Shown here one piece after another: positions 30,805-54,903 of a stretch of DNA of 64,000 nucleotides (positions are counted from its first letter, which is position 1; each line of letters begins with the position of its first letter). Under the pieces are notes generated by a model. The model worked only from the letters and a program-made list of their open reading frames with translations. It had not been told where the DNA came from and did no database searches. Source of the DNA: an uncultured candidatus Porisulfidus sp. (lineage in GTDB: Bacteria > Pseudomonadota > Gammaproteobacteria > Poriferisulfidales > Poriferisulfidaceae); NCBI GenBank assembly GCA_965199755.1, contig CBDASZ010000001.1:224001-288000 (forward strand), written 5' to 3'. The translations under genes were made by a program, and so were the position numbers.

Positions 30805-30821
30805 CTGTACTCCTGTTATTC

Positions 30822-32987
30822 CTAGCCCGGCACCAGTTCCAGTTTGGCATAACTGTACATCAGCCATTTCGGGCCCTTGTCCTGAAAATCCACCATCACG
30901 CGCAACTGCGGCGGTCGGCCTTCGTAGCGGGTGATTATGCCTTGTCCGAGCGTTTGATGTGATACCAGCGTGCCGATCTCCGGGACCTCCCATGTGGTGG
31001 TGTCCGGCGGCGGCTTGGGTGCTGGCGCGTAGGTGTTGACTTCCGACGCGGTTTCACGATCAAGGGCGACGTACTCTCTCGGCAACTCAAACAAAAAATC
31101 CGAAGGCATGCTGGCTGCGACGTGCCCGTATTGCCAGCGGCTGTTGGCGAAACTCAAAATCAGTTTCTTCTCCGCGCGCGTCATACCGACATAGCACAGC
31201 CGGCGTTCCTCTTCGGGATCGGAATCCTCCAGCGTCATGGGTAGCAAACCCTGCTCGAACCCGGCGATGAAAACCAGCGGGAACTCCAGTCCTTTGGCCT
31301 TGTGCAGCGTCATCATCTGTACGGCGTCCCCTTCCGTTCCAGCGCTTTCCTCACCGGCATCCAGCACGGTGGTGTCCAGATAAATCTGCAACGGGCTGCG
31401 TTTATCATTGGGTTCCGTATCATGCCGCCATTCAAATTGCGCGGCCGAGTTGACCAGTTCCTTGAGGTTGTCGACGCGCTGCTCGTCCAGTTTCCGGTCC
31501 TGCTCCTGATACATGGCCTGCAGCCCTGAATCCGCCAGTGCGTGGCGTACCGATTCAACCAGTCCGAGTTCGGCAGTTTGTAGGCGCAGCCCTTCGAGCA
31601 GTTCCTGAAATTGGGCGAGCGCCTCGACTCCGCGTCCACCGTTGCCGGCATTCACAAGGGCGCGGCAGGCTGCCGCCAGCGATGTCCCGTCCTGTTGCGC
31701 CTGCTGTCGGACCCGCGCAACCGTGCTGTCTCCGATGCGGCGTGGCGGAATATTGCAGATGCGCGCCCAAGAGACATCGTCATCGGGATTGTGGCACAGA
31801 CGCAGATAAGCCAGCGCGTTTTTAATCTCGGTGCGCTCAAAAAATCGCGTGCCACCGTAAATGCGGTACGGGACGCCTTCGCGCACGAAGCAACTCTCGA
31901 AGTCCCTGGACTGCTGATTGGTGCGGTACAGCAGCGCGCAGTCGCTCCAGCGGCCATGCTGTTGCTGCCATGCCTGAAAGTGTTCGAGGGCGGCTTCAGG
32001 CTCGTGGTCGCTGCGCTCATGGTTGATAACCAGCACCGGGTCATTGCCGCGGTTTCTAGTCCACAGCGTTTTGCGCAAACGGGCCTGATTGTGTTCAATG
32101 ACGGCGTTCGCGCAATTCAGAATAGGCGTGGTGGAGCGATAGTTTTGTTCCAGTTTCCACACCTTCAGATCGGGATGCTCTTTCTTGAAGCGCAGCATCA
32201 GATCCGGGCGTGCGCCGCGCCAGCCGTAAATGGATTGATCGTCATCGCCGACAGTGAAGATCGGGATCGCGCCGCCGCTTAGCAGTTGCAGCCAGGCATA
32301 CTGCAATTCATTGACATCCTGAAATTCATCCACCAGAAGGTGGCGGAGCCGTTGCTGGTAGTGGCCTGCGACCTCAGGGTGTTCGCGCAGCAGTTCCACC
32401 GCGCCGAGCAGCAAATCGTCGAAATCCACCACGCCGCTTTCGGCGCAACGTTTTTCGTAGTGTCGCATGACGTCGATCAGATGTCCATCGGCAGGATGGT
32501 CTTTCGGCACATGTTTGGCCCGCCGGCCGCGGGATTTTTGCTGGCTGATCCATCTGATCGCACGGTTGATGTCCGCTTTCTTGTGCGGCAGGTGGGCCGC
32601 ACTGAGGCTGTCCCGAATCAGGCTCTGCTGATCTGCGCGATCGACAATCTGGAAGGACGGTTTCAGCTTGGCCTCTTTGGGGAAGCGCGCCAGCATGCGG
32701 CGGCACAAACTGTGAAACGTGCCAACCCACATCCCGCTTGCCGTGTGACCGGTCAACTGCTGAATGCGCTCGCGCATCTCGGTGGCGGCCTTGTTGGTAA
32801 AGGTGACGGCGAGGACCTGATGCGGAGATAGTTGCTGTGTTTCAAGCAGCCATGCGAAACGGTGGGTCAGGACTCGTGTCTTACCGGTGCCTGCACCCGA
32901 CAAGACGATGCAATGTTCCTGCGGAGATGACGTGACAGCGTCGCGCTGCACCTCGTTGAGCGGGTCCAGAATGGAGCGGAGACTCAT
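30822..32987 (-). CDS. uvrD: UvrD/Rep-family DNA helicase
   Basis: GAGTGKT, DEFQD, VGDDDQSIYGWRGA, EQNYRS, HKAKGLEFP, EEERRLCYVGMTRA. Confidence 0.93.
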   Translation of the reverse strand: MSLRSILDPLNEVQRDAVTSSPQEHCIVLSGAGTGKTRVLTHRFAWLLETQQLSPHQVLAVTFTNKAATEMRERIQQLTGHTASGMWVGTFHSLCRRMLARFPKEAKLKPSFQIVDRADQQSLIRDSLSAAHLPHKKADINRAIRWISQQKSRGRRAKHVPKDHPADGHLIDVMRHYEKRCAESGVVDFDDLLLGAVELLREHPEVAGHYQQRLRHLLVDEFQDVNELQYAWLQLLSGGAIPIFTVGDDDQSIYGWRGARPDLMLRFKKEHPDLKVWKLEQNYRSTTPILNCANAVIEHNQARLRKTLWTRNRGNDPVLVINHERSDHEPEAALEHFQAWQQQHGRWSDCALLYRTNQQSRDFESCFVREGVPYRIYGGTRFFERTEIKNALAYLRLCHNPDDDVSWARICNIPPRRIGDSTVARVRQQAQQDGTSLAAACRALVNAGNGGRGVEALAQFQELLEGLRLQTAELGLVESVRHALADSGLQAMYQEQDRKLDEQRVDNLKELVNSAAQFEWRHDTEPNDKRSPLQIYLDTTVLDAGEESAGTEGDAVQMMTLHKAKGLEFPLVFIAGFEQGLLPMTLEDSDPEEERRLCYVGMTRAEKKLILSFANSRWQYGHVAASMPSDFLFELPREYVALDRETASEVNTYAPAPKPPPDTTTWEVPEIGTLVSHQTLGQGIITRYEGRPPQLRVMVDFQDKGPKWLMYSYAKLELVPG

Positions 32988-34516
32988 CAGAACAGGCCGG
33001 CCCGATAGGCCAGCCATCCGGTGGCGGCCAGAAGCGCAAGGAGCCAGAATCTGAGCCATCGTGCGCTTCTGCGCTGCTCTTCAATCCGTTGCGTCAGTTT
33101 GCCTTGGACATCTTCAACAGAGGGGGGCGTTGCGAAATACGCGAGCAGTTTGGGAATCCAGTGTGACTGCGCCTCCGACAGCACCGCGCGGATACCGGCT
33201 TGTTCCCGAATCCAGCGCTTGATAAAGGGCGTGGTGGTTGTCCACAAGTTCAACTGCGGATACAACTCCCGGCTGATGCCTTCAATATTGATCAGGGTTT
33301 TTTCCAGCAAGGCCAGTTGCGGCTGAAGGTCCATGTGGAATCGGCGGGTGACCTGAAACAATTGCCACAGCAGGGCACCAAATGAGATTTCTGTGGGGGA
33401 GTACTGGAAAATCGGCTCCGAAACTGTGCGTACGGCCGCTTCGAAGTCCTCAATTCGCGTATCTGGCGGAACCCAGCCGGAACGGACGTGCAATTCGGCG
33501 ATCTGGCGATAGTCGCGCTTCAGCAAGGCGTCAAGGTTGAGCGCCAGATATAACAGATCGAAGCGAGACAGGGATCCGACGATGCCGAAATCGACGAGGT
33601 TGTAGCACGGCTTTTGGGGGTTGTCGATCGAAATGAAAATGTTGCCTGGGTGCATGTCGGCGTGAAACAGGTTGTGGTCGAAAAGTTGTCGGAAGAAGAT
33701 TTCCACCCCTTGTTTGGCGAGTTGCTCCATATCCACGCCGGCCCGCATCATGGCCTCGCGATCTGTTAAGCGGACGCCGGTGATGTGCTCCATGGTTATC
33801 ACATGGCGTGAGGTGTACTCCCAATACACGCGAGGAACGTACAGAAGGTCGCTGTCCTTGAAATTTCGGCGCATCTGGTTAGCGTTGGCCGCCTCGCGTC
33901 GCAGGTCAAGCTCGTCCAGAATGATTTTCTCGTATTCGCCGACCAGTTCCACCGGACGCAGCCGTCGGCTTTCCTTCCACAAAAACTCCAGCGTACGCGC
34001 TAGCGCATACATCAAATTCACGTCCTGATGCACCACTTTCTCAATATTGGGGCGCAGCACCTTAACGATCACGTTGACGCCATGCAGTTGCGCGACGTGG
34101 ACTTGCGCGATTGAAGCTGAGGCCAGCGCCTCTGTTTCAAAAGAGTCAAAAATTTCCGAGACCGGACGCCCCAGAGCCTTTTCGACTTCAGCGCGGGCCT
34201 GATCTCCGTCGAAGGGTGGCACCCGATCCTGCAACAATGCCAACTCGGCCGCCAGATCCCGCGGCAACATGTCGCCGCGTGTAGACAAGATTTGCCCGAA
34301 CTTGATAAACGCCGGGCCCAAATCCTGCAGCGCCAGACGGATGCGTGCTGGCAGTGGGTGGCGTTTCCTTCGATGCCAGTGCCACGGCAGAATACGCACC
34401 ACCCAGTGGACGGGCCGAAACAGCGGCATGGATAGCAGGTACTCGTCGACTTCGTGGCGGGCCAACGTCCACAAGATACGCAACAGTCGTGTCACAACGC
34501 GACCGGGCTGTTTCAT
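32987..34516 (-). CDS. ubiB: Ubiquinone biosynthesis kinase-like protein UbiB
   Basis: LGPAFIKFGQILSTR, ASASIAQVH, FHADMHPGN, DFGIVG. Confidence 0.96.
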   Translation of the reverse strand: MKQPGRVVTRLLRILWTLARHEVDEYLLSMPLFRPVHWVVRILPWHWHRRKRHPLPARIRLALQDLGPAFIKFGQILSTRGDMLPRDLAAELALLQDRVPPFDGDQARAEVEKALGRPVSEIFDSFETEALASASIAQVHVAQLHGVNVIVKVLRPNIEKVVHQDVNLMYALARTLEFLWKESRRLRPVELVGEYEKIILDELDLRREAANANQMRRNFKDSDLLYVPRVYWEYTSRHVITMEHITGVRLTDREAMMRAGVDMEQLAKQGVEIFFRQLFDHNLFHADMHPGNIFISIDNPQKPCYNLVDFGIVGSLSRFDLLYLALNLDALLKRDYRQIAELHVRSGWVPPDTRIEDFEAAVRTVSEPIFQYSPTEISFGALLWQLFQVTRRFHMDLQPQLALLEKTLINIEGISRELYPQLNLWTTTTPFIKRWIREQAGIRAVLSEAQSHWIPKLLAYFATPPSVEDVQGKLTQRIEEQRRSARWLRFWLLALLAATGWLAYRAGLF

Positions 34517-34795
34517 AAGATCAGAGTTGTGCGGGACAGTGTATGCACGGGAGACAGAGTGGCAAAAAGCGGGTTATTGTGTCGCAGGCGTAGTGTTTCG
34601 CGCCAAAACAGGGGGTTGCGTGATTAGGGACACAATATTATAAGGCAGGGGCTTGTGGTGTGCATGCGGGTCAGCGGACAAAGTGATAGAGGATGACTGA
34701 TAAAATGGTAGTTGAAGCCACCGACCATATATAAAACTGGTTCTCAGATCATGCCCGAAAACAACGAAAATGACAATGATGGCATAATTCAGGGT

Positions 34796-36538
34796 ATGAA
34801 AGGTCTCATTCATCGCCTGCTTGGGGTGTCATTTGTGTTGGCGCTGGGGGCATTTGGCGTGGTAAGCGCGGACCCGGGCCTCAATATGCCCGAGGGCAGT
34901 TTCGTGGTAGCACTGCGCATAAACCCGCAGGATACAAAGGATTTAGAGCAATCTGATACGCAAGATTCAGGGGGTACACCAACTGACGAAGCCGAAACCG
35001 CGCCGCCGCAGGATCCGCCGGTCAATTCAGGGGATCAGGATGCGGAAAATCAGGAGGGATTGCGCGATTGGTTGGCGCGAGTGCTGTTTCCGCCGCAGTC
35101 TGCAGAGCTGGGGGACGGTGATGAGGCGTCAGAAGACAGTGCGCCGCAGACAGCTGAGGCTGAAGAGCCGGAGCCGTCGCCGCCCGCTGTGACAGAGGCG
35201 CCGCCTGAGGAGCCGGAACCACCCGAAGAGGCTGAAATTCCGCCAGAAGATCCTGCTGATGAAGAATCCGAAGATGTACTAACGCGGGCCGAGCGGGTCT
35301 TGGAAAATCTGGTCGATCTTTTGTTTGGCCTCCTGCCGGAAGAGACGGCCAGTTCACTAGACAGTCAGGATTCTGAGGAAAATCAGAGCGATTCCGAGCC
35401 TTCCGCAAGTGCGGAGGACCAGCAAAGCGCTGAATCCGCGCAAAGCGTACAGCGGGGAGCAGCTCAGCCTGCATCTTCCTTATCGCCTTCCACGCAAGGA
35501 CAGGGGACGGCCGGGACACCCACTAACACGCCAGCCGGCTCTGGGGACGGCGCTGAAGCACCATCAGGCAGTCCAGGCGAGTCGGGCGCTTCACAGGGGC
35601 AAGGCACAGGGCAGGGAGCAGTGTCCTCAGCGCCTTCTTCCTCCCCATCAGACAGCGCCTCCGGCTCCGAAGGGGGCAGTTCCGGGGAATCTTCAGGCGC
35701 ATCGGGATCAACCGAAAGTGCGTCAGGCGATCCGGGCGCTTCATCTGGACAGGGCGCAGCGGCTTCCGCATCCTCTACACCTTCGCAGGGTGCAGCAAAA
35801 GCCGGGGGGGCTGCGGCTGCTGAAGCGGGCAGCGCCTCCGCAGGCAGTGCGGTGGGCGACGTACAAGTCCCAGGGGTGCCAGGAGTACCCGGTTTACCGG
35901 GGCTGAGTCCCGGAGCCGGGCTAGGCCTTGACCTTGATCTGGAGCCAACGGTTTCAGGGGATGTGGGCACAGACGCATCGGGTGACACGGAAGGGACAGG
36001 GCAATCATCAGGCACTTCGGAATCTTCGGCAAGCGCATCAGGTCAGGAGGGCGCTTCGTCTGAACAGAACGCAGGTGCACCGGGCAATGCACCCGCACAG
36101 GGAGGCTTGGAATCAGGCAGTCCTGCAGGACGCGGGGTGACTCAGGCGGAGAAACAGGCCGAGATTGCTACCCGCGCCGGCAAGATCATGGAGAATCTTG
36201 ACGCTGTCTTGTTGCAGTCTCAGAAGGATCTGGAGGCCAGCACTGCGGAAGACGCGGAACTGGTGTCGATCGATGAAAGGTCGGGCTCCGGGGAGAGCGG
36301 CGATACGCAGGCGGAACAGGAGCAAACGGAAGACGGAGAAGAGGAGATGCAGCAGGGATCCAGAGACACAACGCCAGGCAATCAGGCCAGCAAAAGAGGT
36401 TCTGGTGGCGAGCTTGACCCGGAATCGGATATAGTGGTACGCCAAGTATGCGATCTTGCGGAACAAGAAGAGAATCCAGAGGTCAAACAGAAGCTGACAC
36501 AACGTTGTGCGGACATGAAAAAAGATGCGAAAAACTAA
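34796..36538 (+). CDS. Exported low-complexity (Glu/Pro then Ser/Gly/Ala-rich) protein, first gene of the putative motor operon; alternative start 34751
   Basis: Signal-like MKGLIHRLLGVSFVLALGAFGVVSA, long disordered body, helical C-terminus DIVVRQVCDLAEQEENPEVKQKL. Confidence 0.75.
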   Translation: MKGLIHRLLGVSFVLALGAFGVVSADPGLNMPEGSFVVALRINPQDTKDLEQSDTQDSGGTPTDEAETAPPQDPPVNSGDQDAENQEGLRDWLARVLFPPQSAELGDGDEASEDSAPQTAEAEEPEPSPPAVTEAPPEEPEPPEEAEIPPEDPADEESEDVLTRAERVLENLVDLLFGLLPEETASSLDSQDSEENQSDSEPSASAEDQQSAESAQSVQRGAAQPASSLSPSTQGQGTAGTPTNTPAGSGDGAEAPSGSPGESGASQGQGTGQGAVSSAPSSSPSDSASGSEGGSSGESSGASGSTESASGDPGASSGQGAAASASSTPSQGAAKAGGAAAAEAGSASAGSAVGDVQVPGVPGVPGLPGLSPGAGLGLDLDLEPTVSGDVGTDASGDTEGTGQSSGTSESSASASGQEGASSEQNAGAPGNAPAQGGLESGSPAGRGVTQAEKQAEIATRAGKIMENLDAVLLQSQKDLEASTAEDAELVSIDERSGSGESGDTQAEQEQTEDGEEEMQQGSRDTTPGNQASKRGSGGELDPESDIVVRQVCDLAEQEENPEVKQKLTQRCADMKKDAKN

Positions 36539-37694
36539 CCAGCTGATCGGCTTGACGCTGCTGTGCGCACTGGCGACGGCCTGCAAAAGCGGGATCTATT
36601 CCGGTGGTTTCCTGTCGCTGGAGGATGATGCTCCCGCGGAGCCGATCCCGGTCGAGGCGTACATTGACGCGGGCATTGTCCGTTTCAAGGGGCCGATTGA
36701 CGAGGATGATCTAGCCGAAGGCAAAGTATTCAAGAAAGTCCGCGAAGCCGAGACGCATTATTTCCCGCAGCAGCTTCGCCAGGCGATGATTCGCAGCGGC
36801 GGCTGGCGACACGTCTGGGTGGTGCCCGAGACGTCGGTGGTGGATCTGAAGGTCGAGGGCTTGATCATCACTTCGGACGGTGAGGATCTGGATTTGCGGA
36901 TTATTGCCACTGATGCGACCGGCCGCAGATGGCTGGACAAAACCTACGACCATGAACTCACGGAGGAGAATTTCGCGCCAAGTCAGGGTGTGCAGATGCC
37001 GGACATGCTGTTTGACCAAATCGCCGCAGACCTGTTGAAGTTGCGCGACCGCCAAGGGGTGGAAGCGCTCAAGGAAATTCGCACGGTGGCGGAGTTGAAG
37101 TTCGCCAGAAATTTCGCACCGGAGGCGTTTGAGCGTTATGTCGGGCGCGATGGTGGCCGAGATTATCTGGTGTCGTTGCCGGCTCAGGACGATCTGAAGT
37201 ACCAGTTGGTGCTGCAGATTCGGGAATACGATGACCGGTTTATGGAGCAGTTGCAGGCCCACTCCATGAAGTTTTCCGACCGGATAGATTCCTCCTATCG
37301 CGATTGGCTCAAGCAAAGTTACTTTGAGCATCGCGCCCGTTCGGAAGAGGTCACCGACAGCGTTGTCCAAGGCGTGCTGAGTGTTTTGGCGCTGGCGGCC
37401 GGGGTGGCGATAGCGGCGGACGGCGGGCATCCTGACACACGCAATGCCGGAGTGTTGCTGGCGGCTGCCGGAGCGTATGGTGCTTACGAAGCGTATGGGA
37501 AATACGAAGGCACTGAAATTCACGACGCCGCATTGAAAGAACTCGGTCACTCACTCAATCTGGAGGTTGAGCCTCAGATCATTGAGATAGAAAGCGAAAC
37601 CTACACGCTTCGCGGTTCGGTCGAGGAGCAATATCAGCAGTGGCGCGACATCCTCAACGACATCTACGCATCGGAACGCGGCCTCCGCAATTGA
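36525..37694 (+). CDS. Putative lipoprotein of unknown function
   Basis: Lipobox LATA-C after a basic/hydrophobic leader; glycine-zipper-like hydrophobic hairpin near the C-terminus. Confidence 0.75.
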   Translation: MRKTNQLIGLTLLCALATACKSGIYSGGFLSLEDDAPAEPIPVEAYIDAGIVRFKGPIDEDDLAEGKVFKKVREAETHYFPQQLRQAMIRSGGWRHVWVVPETSVVDLKVEGLIITSDGEDLDLRIIATDATGRRWLDKTYDHELTEENFAPSQGVQMPDMLFDQIAADLLKLRDRQGVEALKEIRTVAELKFARNFAPEAFERYVGRDGGRDYLVSLPAQDDLKYQLVLQIREYDDRFMEQLQAHSMKFSDRIDSSYRDWLKQSYFEHRARSEEVTDSVVQGVLSVLALAAGVAIAADGGHPDTRNAGVLLAAAGAYGAYEAYGKYEGTEIHDAALKELGHSLNLEVEPQIIEIESETYTLRGSVEEQYQQWRDILNDIYASERGLRN

Positions 37695-38425
37695 TCCGCA
37701 CCATCGGGGCGCTTGCGCTGGCGGTTTGGTCGGCGGTTGCGGTCGGCGCGGAATCCGCGGTGCCGCAAGCCGTGCTCGCGGCCATGGCTCGCGGTGACTG
37801 GGCGGAAGCGGCGCGACTGTTGCAGCCGCTTGACGGCGAGCGGGTGCGCGCCTACCGAAGTCAGGCTCTAGCGGAATTGCAGCATCTTGATGCCCGACCG
37901 CATATGCAGCAGGCCGAACAGGCGCGACAAAAACAAGACTGGAACGCTGCGGACGCGGCTTATGGCCGCGCGCTGGCGCGGGCTCCGTTGCTGGCGGCTG
38001 CGCAGAAGGGTCGCGCGCAAATCAAACCCTATATCGATGCGCATCAGCAACTGGCGGCACTGAAAGTGGATGAGGGTTTGTTTGATCCGGTGCTGCGGGC
38101 GCGGGCGCGGGACTGGCTGGCGGCGGTGCAGAAGCAAAAACTTTCAGATCCCAAAATCAATGCGGCGCTACGGGTGATCCCGCAAGTGGTCCAGCGTGCC
38201 GAGACACCGGTGTTTTTCACGCTGACTTCCGACGGCAAATCAGAGGTGGAGATCCATGGTGTGGGCAAGCTCGGACGTCTGCAGGAGCAGACCCTGAAAC
38301 TTGCTCCGGGGGATTATGTGGCGGTAGCGTTTCGTCCCGGCTATCGGGACACGCGCAAAGTCCTGCGGGTGCGACCGGATGAGACGTTGAGCGTGGACAT
38401 CCGCTGTACGGAGGAGATCCGGTGA
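37691..38425 (+). CDS. Exported TPR-like helical protein with C-terminal PEGA-like beta domain
   Basis: TTG start overlapping the upstream stop; signal peptide; AxxAYxRAL TPR-like segment; LAPGDYVAVAFRPGYRD. Confidence 0.7.
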   Translation: MIRTIGALALAVWSAVAVGAESAVPQAVLAAMARGDWAEAARLLQPLDGERVRAYRSQALAELQHLDARPHMQQAEQARQKQDWNAADAAYGRALARAPLLAAAQKGRAQIKPYIDAHQQLAALKVDEGLFDPVLRARARDWLAAVQKQKLSDPKINAALRVIPQVVQRAETPVFFTLTSDGKSEVEIHGVGKLGRLQEQTLKLAPGDYVAVAFRPGYRDTRKVLRVRPDETLSVDIRCTEEIR

Positions 38426-40236
38426 GCGTTCCGATTCGTGAGCAGCCGTATGTGCCTCCGGCTTCCGGTGGCGGGCCAAGGAAGCGGCGGCGCTGGTGGC
38501 CGGCTTTGCTGGTGTTGCTGGCGGCGCTGGTGGTCGGCGTGCTCGCCGCCACGATGGGGCGATTGCAGACTTTTGAGGTGACCCCGGCTGAGGCGACGGT
38601 GCAACTGGATCCGAAACCGTTGCTATCAGGAGATGACTGGGCCTTGCTGCACTGGCACTGGACCTATCAAGTTGAGGCGACGGCAGAAGGGTATCGTTCC
38701 TTGAAGCAGGAGTTGCTGGTGGATGACAGCAGTCCTTCAGTGTTGCGTCTGGAACTGGAGCCGCTGCTGGGTGCCTTGCGTGTGGTGACAGACCCGAAGG
38801 TGACAGGAGAAGTAAGTCTTGAGGGCAAACGGGTCGGACTGACAGGCAATGTGATTGAGGAGTTGGAGCCTGGAATTTACGACGTAGAGGTACGCGCGCG
38901 CGGTTATGAGCCGGGGCGCGCTGAGGCGAAGGTACATGGCTATGGCGCAGTCGATGAGATCACGCTGGAATTGGTCGCTTTGGCACTGGTTGGGACGCTG
39001 ACGCTCAGCAGCGATCCTGCGGGCGCGGATCTGCTCATCAACGGTGCGGCGCAAGGGCGCGCTCCACAGACGTTGACGGGGGAAGTGGGTGCGAAGTTAC
39101 AGGTGGTGGCGCTGTATCCGGGACATGACGTGGCGCGCGCGACGCTGACTGTGCGCGAAGGGGCGCAGAAACACACTTTGCGTCTGCCGGCGCGTGTCGG
39201 CACAGTGGAGTTGTTTCCGACGCCGACCAATGCGATGATCCGTATTGATGGTGAACTGGAACTGCGCCGAAAACTGGAACTGCCGCAGCGCGAGCACCAG
39301 ATTGAGGTCTCCGCTCCGGGGCATATCACCCGAACCTATCGTCTTACGCCTCATCCAGAGTCTGCGGCGCGGCTGAGCGTTCGTCTGTTGCCGGAGTCCG
39401 TTGCGGCTACGGGACGGCGGCAGAAATGGGAGCAGGAGCAGAAGTTGCAGTTTGTGTCGTATCGGCCTTACGAATCGTTTGCCATTGAGACGACGCGGCG
39501 CAAAATCCCGGTGCGCCTCACCCGTCCGTTCGCGATTCTCGATCGCGAAGTCAGCAACAAGTTGTATCGCAAGTTCCGCGACAGTCATGATTCCGGCAAG
39601 TTCAAGGGCAAGACCCTCGACAACGGGTCGCAACCGGCGGTGCGGATGTCGTGGAATGACGCCGCGCTGTTTGCGAACTGGGCGAGCGAGCAGGCCGGAG
39701 TGGCACCGTTTTATCGAATGAAGGATGGTCAGGTGAGGGGCTTTGATGCCAGTGCCATCGGTTACCGCTTGCCGACGGACGCCGAGTGGGTATGGTTGAC
39801 GCGGCGTGAGGGGCGTTTTGCATGGGGTGATGGCCGGCCGCCAAACCGTTTTGCCAATATGGCGGATCGCACGGCCTCAAAACTGTTGTCGCAGGTGAGC
39901 AAGGAATACACTGACGGATTTGAGGTCAGCGCTCCGGTCGGCAGTTTGCAGCCGGTAACACGAGGGAAGTTGTATGATTTGCCGGGGAATGTGGCGGAAT
40001 GGATACACGACGTGTACGGCAGTGATGTTAAATTGTTGATTGACACGGGGGGCCGCGGCGTTTCCGAGGAACGGGTGGATCCCTTGGGGGTGGCGAAGGG
40101 GCAGTTCCATGTGGTGCGCGGCTTCAGCTGGCGCACTTCAAGCCAGCGAGAACTCAGTCTGGCGTACCGGAATTATGGTGCGAAAGGCAAGCTCGATGTG
40201 GGTTTTCGGCTTGCCTACTATTTGGATCCAAAATGA
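38422..40236 (+). CDS. Membrane-anchored PEGA-repeat protein with C-terminal FGE-sulfatase (SUMF1)-fold domain
   Basis: N-terminal TM, PEGA-like SDPAGADLLING, FGE motifs PAVRMSWNDA, YRLPTDAEW, LYDLPGNVAEW, VGFR. Confidence 0.88.
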   Translation: MSVPIREQPYVPPASGGGPRKRRRWWPALLVLLAALVVGVLAATMGRLQTFEVTPAEATVQLDPKPLLSGDDWALLHWHWTYQVEATAEGYRSLKQELLVDDSSPSVLRLELEPLLGALRVVTDPKVTGEVSLEGKRVGLTGNVIEELEPGIYDVEVRARGYEPGRAEAKVHGYGAVDEITLELVALALVGTLTLSSDPAGADLLINGAAQGRAPQTLTGEVGAKLQVVALYPGHDVARATLTVREGAQKHTLRLPARVGTVELFPTPTNAMIRIDGELELRRKLELPQREHQIEVSAPGHITRTYRLTPHPESAARLSVRLLPESVAATGRRQKWEQEQKLQFVSYRPYESFAIETTRRKIPVRLTRPFAILDREVSNKLYRKFRDSHDSGKFKGKTLDNGSQPAVRMSWNDAALFANWASEQAGVAPFYRMKDGQVRGFDASAIGYRLPTDAEWVWLTRREGRFAWGDGRPPNRFANMADRTASKLLSQVSKEYTDGFEVSAPVGSLQPVTRGKLYDLPGNVAEWIHDVYGSDVKLLIDTGGRGVSEERVDPLGVAKGQFHVVRGFSWRTSSQRELSLAYRNYGAKGKLDVGFRLAYYLDPK

Positions 40237-40457
40237 AGTACCTCTCTCTCGGCCTGTTGTTGTTCGCGGGGACGGCGATGGCGCAGGAGCCGCCTCCGGC
40301 AAAGGATTTAGACGCGCCGGATACGCCGTTGCTGGTCGATGTGCTCACCGGAGAGGAACTGGAGGAGATCTCGAAGAATCCCTCGCTGGTGCGCGCGCCG
40401 GCGCCGAAAGAGAAAATCACTGCGGATGAAGCAGTGGATATGCCGCGGGACATCTGA
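40233..40457 (+). CDS. Small exported protein
   Basis: Signal peptide with AMA cleavage site; overlaps both neighbours (ATGA, TGATG). Confidence 0.7.
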   Translation: MKYLSLGLLLFAGTAMAQEPPPAKDLDAPDTPLLVDVLTGEELEEISKNPSLVRAPAPKEKITADEAVDMPRDI

Positions 40458-41335
40458 TGCGTTTGCCGAACTGGCGTGACAACGAAGTGGTCTGGCAACT
40501 GCTGGCGCTGTTGCTGAGCATCGTGCTGGTGCATGCGGCGTATGAGCTGGTGGTGCGTCCCACCGCGGCGGTCGAATTGCAGCGTCAGGCGGTGCTGGCG
40601 CAGGCCGAAGCGCCGGCGGATCTGCTGGAGCCGCCTGTGTCAGTGAAGGCGGCGGTTGTGATCAAGGATTACGAACAGGAAGCCTGCTTCATCGCGCTGT
40701 TTTGGGCTTTCGCCATCATGTGGATGAAAGTAATGAAATTACAGTTCTCACGGCGTCTTCTGAGCTGGCCGGGACGCGGTGGAGAGGAGAGTTTTCTGGA
40801 AACCACCGACACGGATGTGATCCTGCCGCAACCGCAGGATCGAGCGCGCTTTGCGGAGATACGCGAACATGCCCGTCAGCATGGCTTCGGCGGCGCGGTG
40901 TTGTTTCAGGCGGTCGATGCCTGTCTGGACCGGTTCTTCACCACGCATTCCGTGTCGGATGCGACCGCGGCGATGAAGGCGCGCTGTGAAATGGAAGCGG
41001 AGCGTCAGGACACCGAACTGGCGCTGGTGCGTTATCTGACCTGGGCGATTCCGTCCTTGGGCTTCATTGGCACGGTTCGCGGCATCAGCGCGGCGCTGGG
41101 ACAGGCGGAAGAGGCGACGCGCGGCAATATTGGGCCGGTGACCGAAAGTCTGGGCGTGGCGTTCAATTCAACCTTTGTCGCCTTGCTGATCAGTCTGATC
41201 ATCATGCTGCTACTGCACAAGTTGCAGGAGGCCCAGGAATCCTTGGTGCTGGATTCGCAGGAACATTGTCAGCATCACCTGTTGCGCTACTTGCGCGGAC
41301 GGGTGCGCGCGGATGAACCCTCTGCTTCGGATTGA
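40457..41335 (+). CDS. MotA/TolQ/ExbB proton-channel family protein
   Basis: WAIPSLGFIGTVRGI and LGVAFNSTFVAL helices typical of the family. Confidence 0.92.
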   Translation: MRLPNWRDNEVVWQLLALLLSIVLVHAAYELVVRPTAAVELQRQAVLAQAEAPADLLEPPVSVKAAVVIKDYEQEACFIALFWAFAIMWMKVMKLQFSRRLLSWPGRGGEESFLETTDTDVILPQPQDRARFAEIREHARQHGFGGAVLFQAVDACLDRFFTTHSVSDATAAMKARCEMEAERQDTELALVRYLTWAIPSLGFIGTVRGISAALGQAEEATRGNIGPVTESLGVAFNSTFVALLISLIIMLLLHKLQEAQESLVLDSQEHCQHHLLRYLRGRVRADEPSASD

Positions 41336-42275
41336 CGGCTATCTTCTGGCGCACGCCCAAGGCGAGCGTTGGGAGGCCGAATGGTGCGCCGCACATAGGC
41401 TCGAAGGCCGCAAGCGCTGGCAGTTTGGAAGCGGTAGCCTGTTGCCGGTCAAGCATGACGGCAACGAGAACAACAGTTATTTCGAGCGGCTGGAAGCCTA
41501 CGACATCGGTAGTGGTGGCTCCGATCTGGATATGGCGTATTGGCACCTGCAGCAGTTTTCTTCTGCCACGAACGATGCGTCTTTGGATTTACTGGTCAGC
41601 GCGACCTTAAATCAGGCGCGTCTGGAACGTCTGATGGGCGTGCTGTCCGCTTTGGGGCATCGCCCCCGGCGTGTGCTGCCGCATGCGTTGCTGGCCGCAT
41701 GGCAGGAAGCCCGCAGACGGAGTGCCGGGGCTGGCGGCACATATCAACTCATTGAGCTGGGGCGCAGCCACTGCAGCATCAGCACGGTTCGGGTGGATGC
41801 GAATGAGGTGGTGCTGTCCTCTCCGCATGCGCGGGAGTACGAGTTCGGGTTTCAGCAGATCTTCTCGCAATGGATGGAGCAGGCGGCGCAAGAGTTTGCC
41901 GCGCGTCAACGTTTCGACATTCACCGCAATCTGGTGGCGAACCGCGAACGCCTGTTCTTGCAGATGCGCCGGGCATCGTACGACGAGGACGCGCAATCCG
42001 AGTCACTGGAGCTGGACTCTCATGTAATTGCGTTAGATCTGGAGTCTTTCGCAATCAACTGGCCCGCGGATATGCTGGAAGCGGACGCGGACCACTGTTG
42101 GCTAGTGCGGCCCCTGACTCAGGAACTGGCCTTGTACCCGCCCGGCGTTAGTTATCAGGGGAAGGTGTCGTGTCTCTGCCCGGAAGGGTCGGTTGACGCG
42201 GTGCGTCAAGCGTTGGAGAGCGTACCTGAGGGCGATGGGCCTGAGTTGATTACGGAACTGAAACTGGGCTCGTGA
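41313..42275 (+). CDS. Hypothetical cytoplasmic protein (possible degenerate actin/Hsp70-like fold)
   Basis: No signal or TM; overlaps both neighbours; fold guess from secondary-structure-like pattern only. Confidence 0.6.
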   Translation: MNPLLRIDGYLLAHAQGERWEAEWCAAHRLEGRKRWQFGSGSLLPVKHDGNENNSYFERLEAYDIGSGGSDLDMAYWHLQQFSSATNDASLDLLVSATLNQARLERLMGVLSALGHRPRRVLPHALLAAWQEARRRSAGAGGTYQLIELGRSHCSISTVRVDANEVVLSSPHAREYEFGFQQIFSQWMEQAAQEFAARQRFDIHRNLVANRERLFLQMRRASYDEDAQSESLELDSHVIALDLESFAINWPADMLEADADHCWLVRPLTQELALYPPGVSYQGKVSCLCPEGSVDAVRQALESVPEGDGPELITELKLGS

Positions 42276-43315
42276 GTGTTAGAAACCGCCAACGTTTTCT
42301 GAACCCGTTTGGGTTGGCGTTTCTGGATGTGATGTCCTGCGGCCTAGGGGCTGCAGTGCTGTTGTTTCTGATTATTGATCACAACCTGACCGAGCAGGCG
42401 GTGGCCTCGGAGACCGGGGAGGAGGACGTTCAGGTCATTGAGGAGGCCATTGAGCAGCAACAGAAACTTTCTATACAACACCGCTTGCAGACGAAGCAGT
42501 TGCAGAAGGAACTGGAGCAGTTGTCCGATGAGCGCGTGGAGACGTTGGTCGCGCTGGCTGAAGCACGCTCAGGTAGCGCCGAGGAAGTGGATACGGAAGA
42601 ACTTGAGCGTCAGTTGCGAGAGAAGCAAGAGCAACTGCAGCAAGCCAAGGAAAGTCAGCAGTTGCGTGATATTTCCGGGGAAGGGCAAAGGCAGTACGTG
42701 GCGGGGTTTCGGATAACCGGAAAGCGTGTTCTGTTTCTGCTGGATAGATCAGCCAGCATGCAGGATGAGAAGATTGCCACCATCATTTACAACCAGTTTC
42801 TGCCCAATGAAACGCAGCGCCAAAGCTCCAAATGGCTTTGGGCCCGTTCTATTCTGGAGTGGATGTTGGCGGCGCTGCCAAAAGACGCGCAATATCAGGT
42901 CTGGGGTTTCAGCAAGAAATATAGCCCGGTTATTTCGAGCCGTTCCTGGATGAATGCCAGCAATGAAGAGGATATGCGGAAAGTGATTGAGGCGGTGGGC
43001 CGATGGGTGCCCAAAGACGGCACACGTCTGGATAAGATGCTAAACAAGGTCAAGAATATGCGCCCGGCACCGGATACCGTCTACATCATTACAGACGGGC
43101 TGCCGACACAAGGATCCAGTTGGTTTAAAAAATCCAAGGTTAGCCCGGAGAAGCGAAAGGAATTCTTCCTTGAGGCTACAACAAAAATCATGTTTCCAAG
43201 GTTCAATGTGGTGTTGCTGCCGCTGGAAGGAGATCCTGAGGCGGCAGGGTTGTACTGGCGTTTTGCCATGCGAACAGGCGGGCAGTTTCTGGCTCCGTCG
43301 AAGGAATGGCCATGA
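42272..43315 (+). CDS. TM + coiled-coil + VWA domain protein
   Basis: AFLDVMSCGLGAAVLLFLII TM, coiled coil, MIDAS DRSAS ... ITDGLP. Confidence 0.88.
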   Translation: MSVRNRQRFLNPFGLAFLDVMSCGLGAAVLLFLIIDHNLTEQAVASETGEEDVQVIEEAIEQQQKLSIQHRLQTKQLQKELEQLSDERVETLVALAEARSGSAEEVDTEELERQLREKQEQLQQAKESQQLRDISGEGQRQYVAGFRITGKRVLFLLDRSASMQDEKIATIIYNQFLPNETQRQSSKWLWARSILEWMLAALPKDAQYQVWGFSKKYSPVISSRSWMNASNEEDMRKVIEAVGRWVPKDGTRLDKMLNKVKNMRPAPDTVYIITDGLPTQGSSWFKKSKVSPEKRKEFFLEATTKIMFPRFNVVLLPLEGDPEAAGLYWRFAMRTGGQFLAPSKEWP

Positions 43316-44274
43316 AGCGCGCGCGACGTAATCAGGACAACAATTTGTCCTTTCTGGATGTGATCAGTTGCAGCTTTGGCGCAATCATCTTGCTGATCCT
43401 GATCTCCAAACCTGCGGATGGGCCGCCGATTGAGGATTTGAGTCTTGAGATTGAAGCCCTGAAGGAAGCGCTCGTGAAAATCACCAGCATTCGGGAAGCA
43501 CTGGCGGAGGAAGAGGACAAAACCGAGAAAAAACTTCAGGCGCAACGGCAGCAACTGATCGAGGACAAGGAATCTCTGCAGGAAGCGAAGCGCGCGCAGG
43601 CAGGAGCCGAAGCGCAAACCTTGATTGCGGGCACTCTGAAGGCGGCATTGCAGCGCCTTAATGAAGAGATGAAGCGTCTGGATCTGAAGCCGTCGGAGCC
43701 GGATGTGATTGGTGGTATTCCGGCCGATAGTGAGTATCTGATTTTTATTATTGACACTTCAGGGAGCATGAAGCGCTACGTGTGGGAGCGCGCCAAGAAG
43801 CAAATGGTTGAGTTGCTGGATGCGTACCCGAAGGTTCGCGGCATTCAGATCATGAATGATATGGGGGAATATATGTTTAGCGGCTATCGCAGACGCTGGA
43901 TTCCTGACACGCCGTCACGTCGCGAGATCATATTGAAACGCTTCGACAGTTGGAGTTCCTACAGCAACTCCAGTCCAGTTGAAGGGATCTTGGAGGCGAT
44001 TGAGCGCTTTCGCATGAAGTCGGACAAGATCAGTCTATATGTTTTGGGTGATGAGTTCACTGGACAGTCGCTGCAAACAGTGATCGACACCGTTGAGAAA
44101 CTCAACTATCAGGATGGCGAGCGTCAGGTGCGCATTCACGCAATTGGATTCTTCCCACGTGCGGTTGTGGCGCAGTTCCCGGACTATGCGCATACGACGA
44201 CCCGTTACGCCGCATTGATGCGCGAACTGACCCGCCGCAATGGTGGATCATTTTTAGGGGTGCTGGTGAATTAA
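43312..44274 (+). CDS. TM + coiled-coil + VWA domain protein (paralog)
   Basis: SFLDVISCSFGAIILLILI TM, coiled coil, MIDAS DTSGS ... LGDEF. Confidence 0.88.
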   Translation: MKRARRNQDNNLSFLDVISCSFGAIILLILISKPADGPPIEDLSLEIEALKEALVKITSIREALAEEEDKTEKKLQAQRQQLIEDKESLQEAKRAQAGAEAQTLIAGTLKAALQRLNEEMKRLDLKPSEPDVIGGIPADSEYLIFIIDTSGSMKRYVWERAKKQMVELLDAYPKVRGIQIMNDMGEYMFSGYRRRWIPDTPSRREIILKRFDSWSSYSNSSPVEGILEAIERFRMKSDKISLYVLGDEFTGQSLQTVIDTVEKLNYQDGERQVRIHAIGFFPRAVVAQFPDYAHTTTRYAALMRELTRRNGGSFLGVLVN

Positions 44275-44368
44275 ATGGGGCCTCAAGGCTATGTGTAGGG
44301 TGGAGGTCTTCGATAGAAGTTAGGTCTACTACGGCAGAAGTGGCTAGTCTTTATAAAATCGAATCTGG

Positions 44369-44669
44369 CTATTCGCACTCGTATTGAACTTCTGCCATAT
44401 CGATGACTTCTTGGCGGGAATAGCGACTTAATTCTGCGGCAGTTCTTAAATCCACTTGGCGTCTTCCAAACAAGGCCGATAATTCGATCTCCATGCCGGC
44501 CATACCAAAGAACCCATTCGGTCTGGAGGAATTCAGCCAGCAAGTCAATATCGCTGTTAGGACCAAAATTATCCCGCAATGCTGAACCAAAGATGGAAAG
44601 TTTTCGAATACCGCTATCGCGACAGAACGTACTCAATTCGGCTTCTCGGATCGATAAGTTGGGATTCAT
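44369..44669 (-). pseudogene. Frameshifted minimal nucleotidyltransferase (MNT antitoxin)
   Basis: IRKLSIFGSALRDNFGPNSDIDLLAEF in one frame, continued by FFGMAGMEIELSALFGRRQVDLRT..ELSRY in another. Confidence 0.78.
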
Positions 44670-44767
44670 GGCTGGAACCCACAAATTTGGGTTGATAGTG
44701 ATTCTAATTTCACCTTCCAATCAGGATGCAGAGAATTGGGCATCCTTCACTGACTAACAACCTACCG

Positions 44768-45622
44768 TTACTGTACTGGATCGACAGCCACCCAAGTTCC
44801 CAAATCACGCAACAATTCCGCTTCCTCTCCAAACCCTTCCAGCGCGGCCAAAGCCTGTTCTCCCAGCCCGGCAAGAAGCTTGCAGGTTTCCGCGTGTCCG
44901 AGTAAAGAAGGATAAGTCGGACGCTCTTCATCAGTGTCTTGCTCAATATCTTCAAGATCATCGCGCACCTGAAATGCCAGACTGACATTCTCCGCATACT
45001 GTTTGAGTGCTTCGCGACGCGGATCTTCTGGTGGGATCAATGTCGTGGGCATCATCACCGAAGCATAAATCAGACAGCCGGTTTTGAGTCGATAGATCTG
45101 CTCCAGCATTTCCACCGTGCACTCAGGCGCATCCAGCACACTCATATCCAGTTGTTGTCCGCCGATCATGCCGCAAGAGCCGCTGGCCTGACAGAACTGA
45201 TCCAGAATGCTGCGTGCCTCACTGGCGGACAAGTCGGGATCGGAGGCAACTTCATTGAAGGCGCAAATCAGCAAGGCATTGCCGGTCAGCAGGGCGGTGG
45301 CTTCACCGAATGCCTTGTGACAAGACGGTTGGCCGCGCCGGATATCGTCATCGTCCATGCATGGCAAATCATCATGGATCAGAGAGTACGCATGCACCAG
45401 TTCCGTCGCGCAGGCGATGCGGTCCAGACGCGATGCGTCGATGCCGGTCGCTTGGCCTGAGGAGTACACCCAGCAGGCGCGCACACATTTTCCTGGACTG
45501 GCCGCACCATGGCGCATGGCGGCATGCAAGCGTTGTGGTGCTACCTCTGCAGGAGGCAGGACTTCTTCAATGCGAGCAATAACCCGCTGCCGCAGCGGGG
45601 CCAGTTTAGCGATCAGGTCCAT
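44768..45622 (-). CDS. ispA: Farnesyl diphosphate synthase / geranyltranstransferase
   Basis: HAYSLIHDDLPCMDDDDIRRGQP, GGQQLD, KTG, FQVRDD. Confidence 0.92.
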   Translation of the reverse strand: MDLIAKLAPLRQRVIARIEEVLPPAEVAPQRLHAAMRHGAASPGKCVRACWVYSSGQATGIDASRLDRIACATELVHAYSLIHDDLPCMDDDDIRRGQPSCHKAFGEATALLTGNALLICAFNEVASDPDLSASEARSILDQFCQASGSCGMIGGQQLDMSVLDAPECTVEMLEQIYRLKTGCLIYASVMMPTTLIPPEDPRREALKQYAENVSLAFQVRDDLEDIEQDTDEERPTYPSLLGHAETCKLLAGLGEQALAALEGFGEEAELLRDLGTWVAVDPVQ

Positions 45623-53672: not shown

Positions 53673-54045
53673 TGCCGCACAGTCTAGCAAAATTGGGGGT
53701 CGGAGCACCGGTTCAACTTCAGCCCGTTTGCGGAAATCCCATCCCTGTCACGCTTAATCGGGTGTGACATCAAGGCAATACATCGGCTACACGTGTAAGT
53801 TCATTTCCGTATAATCGCCCGCCCAAGCAAAGTCATGTCCGCAGTTGCGCGCGAGAGTTAGGTGGCGCTTGGGATGCTGTCTCCATTTAATTTAATGAGG
53901 GGTGTGGGGGTGGTGCCTGTGTGGCGCTGCGCGGATCAATCTGAATCTGCAGTGGTAGGGCACGATTGACAAGACCCCCTCCATAGCTCCCGGCATTCCG
54001 GGTGTGCAACAAGATCTTGGTATTTGGCGTGTTAGAATTTTCGCC

Positions 54046-54423
54046 ATGGATTCAGTCACCGCACCTGTGATGCGTCGTACACTATTCACCCTGACCTTGA
54101 TGGGAGCCATTGTGTCTTCTCTGGCACAGGCCGATGACGCAGGCAGCAGCGCGGCGGTTGAGGTGGGACGTGAGATCGCCTTCGATGTCAAGAAGGGCAA
54201 CTGCCTGTCCTGTCATGTAATCCCCGGAGGAGAGTCACCGGGCAGCATCTCCGTGGCGCTGGTGGCTATGAAAACTCGGTTCCCGGACAAACAGGTGTTG
54301 CGTGCCAATGTCTGGGATCAGACTCAATTTCGCCCACATGCCATGATGCCGCCGTTCGGCAAGCACGGCATCTTGACGGAAGAAGATATTGACAATATTG
54401 TAGAGTTCCTCTACACCCTGTAA
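54046..54423 (+). CDS. soxX: Sulfur oxidation cytochrome SoxX
   Basis: KGNCLSCH, MMPPFGKHGIL; first gene of the sox cluster. Confidence 0.93.
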   Translation: MDSVTAPVMRRTLFTLTLMGAIVSSLAQADDAGSSAAVEVGREIAFDVKKGNCLSCHVIPGGESPGSISVALVAMKTRFPDKQVLRANVWDQTQFRPHAMMPPFGKHGILTEEDIDNIVEFLYTL

Positions 54424-54433
54424 CATTGGAGCC

Positions 54434-54874
54434 ATGCTTATGAATCTGAATCGCAGAACTTTTATCGCAGCGGGATTGGGCGTGCTGTGCGCGCCGGTGC
54501 TGGTGCGAGCGTGGCCGCAAAAGGCGTTTGAGGCTGAAAAGGCTGACGAGGTGCTGGCGGAACTGGTAAAAAACACACCGGAACACAGCGACGCGATCAC
54601 CATCACCGCACCCGACATTGCGGAGAATGGCGCAGTGGTCCCGATATCGGTTTCAACCAGTCATGAAGAGGTCACCCGGATCAGCATTCTGGTGGAGAGC
54701 AATCCGCTGCCGTTGACCTCAAGTTACGAGTTGAGCGCAAATGCCGTGCCTTACGTTTCTACCCGCGTGAAAATGCTCAAGACATCAAACGTGGTCGCGC
54801 TCGTGGATGCGGGCGGCAAGACCTATACCGAAAGCCGTGAAATCAAGGTCACGATAGGTGGCTGCGGCGGCTAA
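54434..54874 (+). CDS. soxY: Sulfur carrier SoxY
   Basis: Tat motif RRTFI, APDIAENGAVVP, C-terminal VTIGGCGG. Confidence 0.97.
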   Translation: MLMNLNRRTFIAAGLGVLCAPVLVRAWPQKAFEAEKADEVLAELVKNTPEHSDAITITAPDIAENGAVVPISVSTSHEEVTRISILVESNPLPLTSSYELSANAVPYVSTRVKMLKTSNVVALVDAGGKTYTESREIKVTIGGCGG

Positions 54875-54903
54875 ACAACAACCAGTCACAAGGAGTCGAT
54901 ACG

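Follow-up and report, generated by a model that had tools for sequence, protein, structure and literature searches.

Two paralogous VWA proteins with a conserved transmembrane aspartate are probable axle subunits of a MotA/TolQ-like motor

We have analysed a stretch of 64,000 nucleotides from an uncultured candidatus Porisulfidus sp. (positions 224,001 to 288,000 of contig CBDASZ010000001.1, assembly GCA_965199755.1; hereafter the window, with positions counted from its first letter), in which the last two genes of an operon of 8–9 genes encode VWA-A (42272–43315, forward strand) and VWA-B (43306–44274, forward strand). Each protein has one N-terminal transmembrane helix containing an aspartate, a helical stalk or linker, and a VWA domain. 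We suggest that the pair probably forms the Asp-bearing axle of an ion-driven motor of the MotA/TolQ type, with the VWA heads coupling it to partners in the periplasm or outer membrane. The direct basis for this proposal is the anatomy of the two proteins, their conservation, the synteny of their genes, and the fact that no canonical B subunit was found in the regions searched. The first-pass annotation of this DNA had described the two proteins as B-type motor subunits, and the core of that description is supported by the invariant aspartate, the MotA-like partner and the search for a canonical B gene, which found none.

Anatomy and paralogy of VWA-A and VWA-B

Both proteins open with an Arg/Lys-rich tail followed by [A/S]-F-L-D-V-[M/I]-S-C, and the translations of the open reading frames (ORFs) contain this start exactly as it had first been described. 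A Kyte-Doolittle scan finds a single hydrophobic segment in each protein (residues 17–35 in VWA-A, 15–33 in VWA-B). In VWA-A, a protein of 347 amino acids (aa) identified from its ORF, Pfam VWA_2, AlphaFold 2 and Foldseek, the tail (1–13) leads into a transmembrane helix at about residues 14–36 (nucleotides 42311–42379), a stalk at about 49–137 and a VWA domain at about 150–347, whose metal-ion-dependent adhesion site (MIDAS) consists of D158-x-S-x-S (42743–42757), T251 and D275. The transmembrane aspartate is D19 (codon 42326–42328) and the transmembrane cysteine C23 (42338–42340). VWA-B, known from its ORF and its hhalign match to VWA-A, has a basic tail, a transmembrane helix at about nucleotides 43342–43407, a helical linker and a VWA domain with the MIDAS motif D-T-S-G-S (43753–43767). 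Its transmembrane aspartate (codon 43357–43359) is D18 when counted from 43306 and D16 from 43312; the cysteine is encoded at 43369–43371. The ORF from 43306 gives 322 aa. We consider 320 aa from the ATG at 43312 the more probable form, because this start creates an ATGA overlap with the VWA-A stop and yields the length of the 320-aa database copy. The GTG start of VWA-A shares 4 nucleotides with the end of the preceding gene, including its stop (GTGA), and the two overlaps of this size (GTGA and ATGA) suggest translational coupling.

The two proteins had been claimed to be paralogues. BLASTP aligns them at E 5e-7 with 25% identity over 158 columns, and the profile–profile comparison by hhalign extends the match to 318 columns (probability 99.8%, E 2.4e-27); judged by these profiles, VWA-A and VWA-B are true paralogues over their full length.

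Conservation of the aspartate helix

A genome scan with one genome per species gave 589 pattern matches, of which at least 483 were confirmed stretches; we retained the best 80 of these loci, and the orthologues discussed here are ORFs translated from them. The transmembrane aspartate is present in 74 of 74 intact VWA-A orthologues and in 79 of 80 VWA-B orthologues. Conservation of this residue had been set beforehand as one of three points at which the B-subunit reading could be refuted, and the residue is kept. The VWA-A count omits six loci: L011 and L032, where the gene meets a contig end; L037, which has only 126 bases upstream and whose VWA-A match is the B gene itself; and L068, L070 and L078, in which VWA-A is frameshifted. 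The sole miss, an exchange of Asp for Ser, is the VWA-B of L070. In that locus (L070:8400-10966), where VWA-A is frameshifted, the Hsp70-like gene is also fragmentary, and the locus appears to be either decaying or taken from an error-prone assembly.

Database searches agree. VWA-A has 952 homologues at E≤1e-3, and among the best 120 the F-L-D motif is present in 119, the exception being an N-truncated gene call. For VWA-B at least 7992 of 8000 candidate database clusters are significant; the aspartate is found in 119 of the best 120 homologues, and the exception is a 202-aa fragment. A 47-column profile of the transmembrane region, searched against 1.84 billion representatives, gave 2232 matches at E≤1e-3 and 1226 at E≤1e-10. 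The aspartate is present in all of the best 150 of these matches, which are mostly short fragments (median about 115 aa, with 7 of at least 300 aa).

The transmembrane helix is the best conserved segment of either protein, at 3.48 bits per column in VWA-A and 3.59 in VWA-B; the VWA domain follows with 2.77 and 3.23, respectively, and the stalk with 1.93 and 2.34. Across 52 N-termini of both families, F, D, C, G and A are invariant, with a C-G-x-G-A patch following the aspartate. The invariant cysteine lies at i+4 from the aspartate, on the same helical face. In solved relatives the aspartate points towards the ring protein; with that orientation here, the cysteine would not face the partner helix, and a disulfide linking the two helices is therefore less likely than tight helix packing through the small residues of the C-G-x-G-A patch.

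Stalk and VWA head

The conservation alignments of VWA-A and VWA-B each hold 31 sequences (30 of the 80 loci, picked for spread, and the window), and the AlphaFold 2 model of VWA-A was likewise built on an alignment of 31 sequences. It shows a helix at 13–45, two long helices at 49–101 and 108–137 of modest confidence (predicted local distance difference test, pLDDT, 46–80), and a VWA fold at 150–347, where most 10-residue blocks have a pLDDT of at least 90. Foldseek matched the model to inter-alpha-inhibitor heavy chain, TFIIH p44 and BatB at E of about 1e-7 to 1e-5, and Pfam VWA_2 recognises the protein at 28.1 bits against a cut-off of 27. The stalk had been described as a long coiled coil; what the model predicts of this is the long helices.

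An intact MIDAS had been claimed for both domains, and both families keep the motif residues with few or no exceptions. In VWA-A, D158, S160, S162 and D275 are invariant and T251 nearly so. In VWA-B, the D-T-S-G-S motif, an S-N-S-S-P segment and D247 are invariant (numbered from 43312, the residues are D148, S150, S152, S220/S221 and D247), and a serine appears to stand in place of the MIDAS threonine. The C-terminal end of VWA-A is Trp-Pro (43307–43312), which is invariant in 31 of 31 sequences and usually has an Asp just before it; the conservation of this ending suggests a docking motif.

The MotA/TolQ-like partner and the search for a canonical B subunit

Two genes upstream of VWA-A, the gene at 40457–41335 (forward strand) encodes a protein of 292 aa that matches Pfam MotA_ExbB (PF01618) at E 6.4e-12, its 45.8 bits exceeding the cut-off of 22.9. 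Four helices, hydrophobic or amphipathic, are arranged in it as an N-terminal pair, a cytoplasmic domain and a second pair, and we take it to be a MotA/TolQ/ExbB-like channel subunit, presumably pentameric. Every locus with 3.7 kb or more of sequence upstream of VWA-B has the gene (66 of 66). Among 29 aligned sequences (the window and 28 of the 70 complete orthologues), T206 (41072–41074), T239 (41171–41173), S238 and P199 are invariant, and an A-I-P-S-x-G-F-x-G-T-V-R-G-I motif and an F-N-S-T segment are invariant or nearly so. The profile aligns with Escherichia coli TolQ (8odt_A, E 6.4e-4) such that T206 pairs with T145, T239 with T178 and P199 with P138 (TolQ residue numbers counted off the alignment), and T206 and T239 are thus placed as the pore threonines.

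No canonical B subunit accompanies this gene in the regions searched, namely the 64-kb window and the flanks of 10 kb on either side of the loci. Pfam finds no ExbD, TolR, MotB or OmpA-type domain at E≤0.1 in the nine operon proteins, MotB_plug included; no ExbD, TolR or MotB at E≤1e-5 in another 55 ORFs from the window; and, at E≤0.01, none in 15 ORFs around the locus of Pseudoalteromonas denitrificans (L017). With TolR, ExbD and MotB of E. coli as queries, phmmer, at the sensitivity of a single sequence, found 0, 0 and 1 matches, respectively, among 12251 six-frame ORFs taken from the window and the 80 loci; the single match is weak (E 0.003) and belongs to L077, where it is situated about 3.7 kb past the downstream end of the operon. 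The claim of a MotA-like partner therefore stands on a MotA_ExbB gene in 66 of 66 loci, on the pore threonines that it keeps, and on the searches alongside it, which found no ExbD, TolR or MotB gene.

The Zorya defence system, which also uses a motor of this type, was considered as an identity for the cluster and rejected: the ZorA models of PADLOC match at E 0.0051 and 0.025 only, ZorB, ZorC and ZorD were not found, and NCBIfam ZorA_4 reaches 12.5 bits where its cut-off is 500.

Pairing of VWA-A with VWA-B

In each of the 79 testable loci, the gene immediately upstream of VWA-B is VWA-A (74 with an intact VWA-A, 3 with a frameshifted one and 2 in which it meets the contig end; the remaining locus of the 80 is untestable), and the stalks of the two proteins are similar in length. 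A complex prediction for residues 1–150 of VWA-A with residues 1–140 of VWA-B reached the level of weak support, with a score of 0.59 against 0.01 for the best of 3 controls; at least 79% of contacts are shared between runs, and the partner pLDDT is at least 72. The mark applied to such predictions is reached by 116 of 157 solved complexes and by 2 of 215 mismatched pairs, and at scores of 0.60 or below it is reached by only 18 of the 157 solved complexes and by both of the passing mismatches; these counts hold only roughly here, since custom alignments were used. Of the heterodimer that had been proposed, the obligate, one-to-one, adjacent pair of genes is borne out, and the complex model adds weak support.

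Both VWA proteins could instead be B subunits that form homodimers, in which case 5:A2 and 5:B2 motors would share one MotA-like ring protein and serve different targets. Solved relatives such as TolQR carry homodimers, the A:B prediction reached no more than weak support, and the A:B pair was the one folded. Against independent homodimers speak the one-to-one occurrence of the two genes, adjacent and in fixed order, the similar stalk lengths and the distance between the A:B score and its controls. We therefore consider homodimers unlikely and favour an A:B heterodimer as the form of the axle.

Proposed mechanism and its alternatives

In our model the MotA/TolQ-like protein would form the outer ring, and VWA-A and VWA-B would be the inner, or axle, B subunits. 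One N-terminal helix from each VWA protein would sit in the pore of the ring with its aspartate near the cytoplasmic end; we infer that the helices insert as the A:B heterodimer, giving a stoichiometry of 5:2. The aspartates would face the ring of Thr206/Thr239 and be protonated and deprotonated with the flow of ions, which we expect to be protons, leading to relative rotation or to a power stroke. The helical stalk of about 90–100 residues would hold the MIDAS-bearing VWA head in the periplasm, where it would replace the ExbD or OmpA-like domain, and the head would presumably bind a carboxylate of its partner through the metal. Candidate partners of the head are other products of the operon, namely a PEGA/FGE-fold and a TPR protein, a lipoprotein, and a protein with an acidic C-terminal motif.

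Several results weigh against this proposal. Pfam finds no family at E≤10 in the N-terminal 45–50 aa of the VWA proteins; the profile of the transmembrane helix, searched against the Protein Data Bank (PDB), finds only NDUFB4 (E 0.39) and no chain of ExbD, TolR or MotB; and hhalign of this profile with E. coli TolR places Asp over Asp, but with a probability of 1.7%. The AlphaFold 2 model of VWA-A has low confidence in the transmembrane helix and stalk (pLDDT 40–80). VWA-B falls under the Pfam cut-offs (VWA, 20.9 against 23.8 bits; VWA_2, 21.6 against 27), and it is tied to the VWA family through VWA-A because of the hhalign match between the two. The proposed ring protein is a distant relative only, with TolQ in the PDB at E 6.4e-4, and fits no NCBIfam equivalog (PomA 18.6 bits against 341, TolQ 18.4 against 221, both at about E 1e-3); the MotA and ZorA models are also far under their cut-offs. 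The complex prediction, made for the A:B pair alone, is weak. Finally, the paper that describes the family (PMC12204202, discussed below) states in its relevant section that the function is unknown.

The lack of significant sequence similarity of the helix to ExbD, TolR and MotB would also fit if the two proteins were membrane-tethered scaffolds or adhesins of the BatA/BatB or TolA/TonB kind. They would then lie outside the pore, the aspartate would have some other role, and the MotA-like protein would work alone or with a TolR or ExbD encoded elsewhere. BatB-type VWA structures do occur among the Foldseek matches (e.g., 3ibs_A, E 1.1e-5), and the searches for a B subunit extended to the window and to the 10-kb flanks of the loci. 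Yet a plain anchor would hardly explain why the best conserved part of the protein carries a charged residue that is invariant. By inspection of the N-termini and consensus, the helices contain no S-H-L-S-type motif and no His, and the operon has no MoxR or DUF58 partner. Moreover, a tolQ-like gene that lacks a syntenic tolR or exbD is described as highly atypical in the section of PMC12204202 on these proteins. We judge the scaffold explanation improbable, somewhat more so than homodimers.

A cleaved signal peptide, also named beforehand as a refuting outcome, would release the VWA proteins into the periplasm as soluble proteins. We consider it very improbable: a basic tail followed by a hydrophobic stretch is superficially similar in layout, but signal peptides are poorly conserved in sequence and have no charged residues in their hydrophobic core, whereas here this segment, with its invariant Asp and C-G-x-G-A, is the best conserved part of the protein. 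The axle with one helix from each protein in the pore remains our preferred reading.

The conserved operon

The operon consists of nine tightly packed ORFs on the forward strand (34712–44274), overlaps between them being common. Predicted promoters and terminators in 34300–44800 number 6 and 9, respectively, where 3.4 and 9.4 would be expected, and are thus uninformative. Conservation beyond the motor genes was assessed by BLASTP of the window proteins in the 53 loci that have at least 9.4 kb upstream. VWA-A and the MotA-like protein are found in all 53, the PEGA/FGE-sulfatase-fold protein in 52, the TPR protein in 50, and the putative lipoprotein and the product of the first gene in 49 each (the search for the last also used the L017 protein).

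The first gene (34712–36538) is a 608-aa ORF which, from its sequence and hydropathy, encodes a secreted, low-complexity protein rich in acidic residues and in Ser and Gly. It has a hydrophobic segment at 36–54, and the true start may lie later, near this segment. The protein has no Pfam match, and BLASTP against its counterpart in L017 (398-1495) is not significant. We base its orthology on position and on a C-terminal motif of about 40 aa (D-D-D-[IV]-V-A-R-Q-[LI]-R-E ... K-L-W-x-E-Y-x-K-Y-K), which is diverged in the window copy and is the only part of the protein that is conserved between loci. We speculate that the acidic start of this motif would suit a MIDAS ligand. The second gene (36525–37694) encodes a putative lipoprotein of 389 aa, recognised from its ORF and hydropathy, with a Cys-containing, signal-like start and a hydrophobic Gly/Ala-rich segment at 280–298. 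It belongs to no Pfam or NCBIfam family, and its Atlas clusters are named only 'Lipoprotein family protein', without Pfam. The third (37640–38425) is an exported protein of 261 aa, a short version of the TPR protein: its counterparts elsewhere have about 500–780 aa, and the L017 orthologue carries TPR repeats. The fourth (38422–40236) encodes the PEGA/FGE-sulfatase-fold protein (604 aa; Pfam FGE-sulfatase E 3.6e-24, PEGA E 3.6e-15), which has an N-terminal transmembrane anchor at residues 28–46 by hydropathy and the FGE domain at its C-terminal end. Between it and the MotA-like gene lies a 74-aa ORF with a signal-peptide-like start (40233–40457). This ORF may not be a real gene; it has BLASTP matches only in the close relatives L001, L003 and L004 and belongs to no Pfam or NCBIfam family.

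The gene between the MotA-like gene and VWA-A (41313–42275) encodes a protein of 320 aa that we assign, from AlphaFold 2, Foldseek and hhalign, as a cytoplasmic protein resembling the nucleotide-binding domain (NBD) of Hsp70, with the actin fold. The model is good (pLDDT 85; predicted TM-score 0.86) and matches Hsp70/DnaK NBDs in Foldseek at E 2e-11 with a TM-score of 0.5–0.6. By eye, the canonical phosphate-binding motif of Hsp70 looks degenerate. Orthologues elsewhere are mostly 410–480 aa long and some end in an FHA domain; hhalign aligns the 320-aa protein with these long orthologues at 98.8% (E 6.4e-17). A profile of 21 of the 60 ORFs found at this position in the loci matches both Hsp70 NBDs (SSB1, E 3.2e-5) and FHA domains in the PDB, and Pfam finds FHA in 2 of 10 scanned. 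The interval between the MotA-like and VWA-A genes has room for a gene in 61 of 73 loci, 60 of which have an ORF there; in the other 12 the two genes abut, with no gene between them. GspL was considered for the 320-aa ORF and set aside in favour of the Hsp70-NBD-like fold, its NCBIfam score being 18.4 bits against a cut-off of 65.

The gene content 3' of VWA-B differs between loci. In loci of the Cellvibrionales/Alteromonadales type, VWA-B is followed by two unknown proteins of about 200 and 224 aa (36 and 30 of 80 loci) and then by an M48 peptidase (24 of 80); L017:11049-13922 is an example, and the window contains none of these genes.

The co-conservation of these genes allows a bolder proposal: the conserved operon of 8–9 genes would encode a trans-envelope machine, as yet undescribed, of which the VWA pair is no more than the axle. 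We hold this only tentatively, at a little short of an even chance. Such a machine would have the MotA-like ring and the VWA-A/VWA-B heterodimeric axle in the inner membrane, and the PEGA/FGE-fold, TPR, lipoprotein and acidic-motif proteins on the periplasmic or outer-membrane side, where the MIDAS heads could clamp the acidic motif. The Hsp70-NBD-like, often FHA-bearing protein would lie at the cytoplasmic face as a regulator or a driven partner.

Genomic setting and distribution

The operon lies in an ordinary chromosomal setting, with atp, glmUS, polA, TRAP transporter and sox genes in the window. The sox cluster (54004–58139, forward strand; cytochrome c, SoxY, SoxZ, SoxA and a SoxB-like protein) and the TRAP transporter genes (27045–30993; DctQ, DctM, DctP) lead us to place the window in a sulfur-oxidising gammaproteobacterium. 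No flagellar genes were found near the operon in a Pfam scan of the window. On the reverse strand at 5577–8191, three ORFs with T5orf172, HNH_2 and DUF4143 domains have a G+C content of 0.49, against about 0.58–0.61, and look like a small mobile or defence-type islet. Directly downstream of the operon, two overlapping ORFs in different frames (44289–44720, reverse strand) have no Pfam match at E≤1e-5; judged by eye, they look like a single frameshifted gene of the nucleotidyltransferase type.

The closest loci are in metagenome-assembled genomes labelled Gammaproteobacteria or 'candidatus Porisulfidus', with VWA-B identities of 65–66%. The family is common in marine Gammaproteobacteria and is also found in Desulfobacterales, Kiritimatiellia and Acidobacteriota. 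Among the relatives that keep it are some from sponge-associated Gammaproteobacteria whose chromosomes measure about 1.6 Mb, and because it is retained in chromosomes of this size, we suggest that it is probably important to these organisms.

Relation to the TPH-vWA family

A motor axle of this kind is already in print as a computational prediction, and the family is known from computation only. In June 2025, section 8 and Fig. 4c-d of PMC12204202 (Mol Biol Evol) described 'TPH-vWA' proteins encoded beside tolQ-like genes, seeded on Idiomarina loihiensis, and proposed the same motor model from synteny and AlphaFold 3. As described there, the proteins combine a C-terminal vWA domain with a trans-pore helix that resembles the one of TolR/ExbD and keeps its Asp, occur mostly as heterologous pairs, and are found in Proteobacteria and the Verrucomicrobia/PVC group; in the AlphaFold 3 models (section 8 and the legend of Fig. 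4d), the pair of Asp residues lies inside a conserved ring of Thr. The proteins of the window show the same features: a single transmembrane helix with a VWA domain, a conserved Asp, linkage to a tolQ-like gene with no tolR, exbD or motB, a paralogous pair, no S-H-L-S motif or His in the helix, and a Thr ring in the TolQ-like partner. We see no difference in kind and assign VWA-A and VWA-B to this family by its described features rather than by comparison with the seed sequence.

The words PEGA, sulfatase and Hsp70 each have 0 occurrences in the main text of PMC12204202, and in the literature outside subscription journals we found no other paper describing this gene set. Kaur et al. 2020 (PMC7159879) was considered as a prior description and rejected, as it has 0 mentions of MotA or TolQ and concerns a different kind of vWA system. 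For the motor itself the value of the window lies in confirmation; what is new here is the quantified conservation and the conserved operon of 8–9 genes, including the PEGA/FGE-fold, TPR and lipoprotein genes and the Hsp70-like cytoplasmic protein. The operon supplies concrete candidate partners for the motor, and its co-conserved envelope and Hsp70-like/FHA proteins are leads to the output.

Comparison with known systems

ExbD and TolR are the B subunits of the Ton and Tol motors. Like them, VWA-A and VWA-B have a basic cytoplasmic tail and one transmembrane helix with the Asp in [F/L]-[L/I]-D-V near the cytoplasmic side, and the partner is TolQ/ExbB-like with two pore threonines. By eye, P-F-I-D-V-M-L-V-L-L of E. 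coli ExbD and P-L-L-D-V-L-L-V-L-L of TolR are close to A-F-L-D-V-M-S-C-G-L of VWA-A. The VWA proteins differ in having a helical stalk of about 100 residues and a VWA head instead of the ExbD periplasmic domain, two paralogous genes in place of one, and the invariant C-G-x-G-A after the Asp. We rejected membership of the ExbD/TolR family, as there is no Pfam ExbD match and the hhalign comparison with TolR is not significant; that the VWA helix functions like the ExbD/TolR helix is well supported by its position, conservation and context. With MotB and PomB the pair shares a transmembrane Asp as the presumed ion-binding site and a partner of MotA-like topology, but by Pfam it has neither a plug helix nor an OmpA-like peptidoglycan-binding domain.

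In GldLM and PorLM, an inner-membrane motor has a dimeric inner subunit that extends far into the periplasm. The FGE-sulfatase-fold protein of our cluster recalls PorK/GldK, the ring proteins of these systems; this is a resemblance only, and the protein here differs in its inner-membrane anchor and PEGA repeats. Identity with PorK/GldK of the type IX secretion system (T9SS) was rejected, only the FGE-sulfatase fold being common (GldK 49.8 bits against 350; GldJ 20.4), and no homologues of GldL, GldM or GldN were detected. BatA and BatB are likewise N-terminally anchored VWA proteins encoded by adjacent paralogous genes, and BatB-type structures are among the Foldseek matches noted above. The partners in Bat operons are MoxR and DUF58 proteins, neither of which Pfam finds in the present operon, and we know of no MotA-like partner or conserved transmembrane Asp in the Bat proteins.

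The AglR-AglQ-AglS motor of Myxococcus xanthus resembles our model in that two different B-type proteins are proposed per pentamer. PMC11761067 presents a predicted AglR5:AglQ:AglS complex and sets the AglQS heterodimer against the TolR homodimer; AglQ/AglS had been taken in the first-pass annotation as an established heterodimer precedent, but the complex as presented in that paper is an AlphaFold model and not a solved structure. In that system the FHA domain of GltG is located near the motor, and the gliding machine includes a VWA adhesin, CglB. Unlike the proteins described here, AglQ and AglS are TolR-like and have no VWA domain, and the VWA protein of the Agl system is an outer-membrane lipoprotein rather than part of the axle.

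The characterised motors of the MotA/ExbB type all pass their force to a B subunit whose terminal domain is of the ExbD, OmpA-like or GldM type. If our model is correct, an axle that carries metal-dependent VWA heads would deliver its output through a device of another kind; and if the larger machine exists as tentatively drawn, it would add a fifth functional class to the proton-driven motors of the envelope, besides flagella, Ton/Tol, gliding/T9SS and Zorya.

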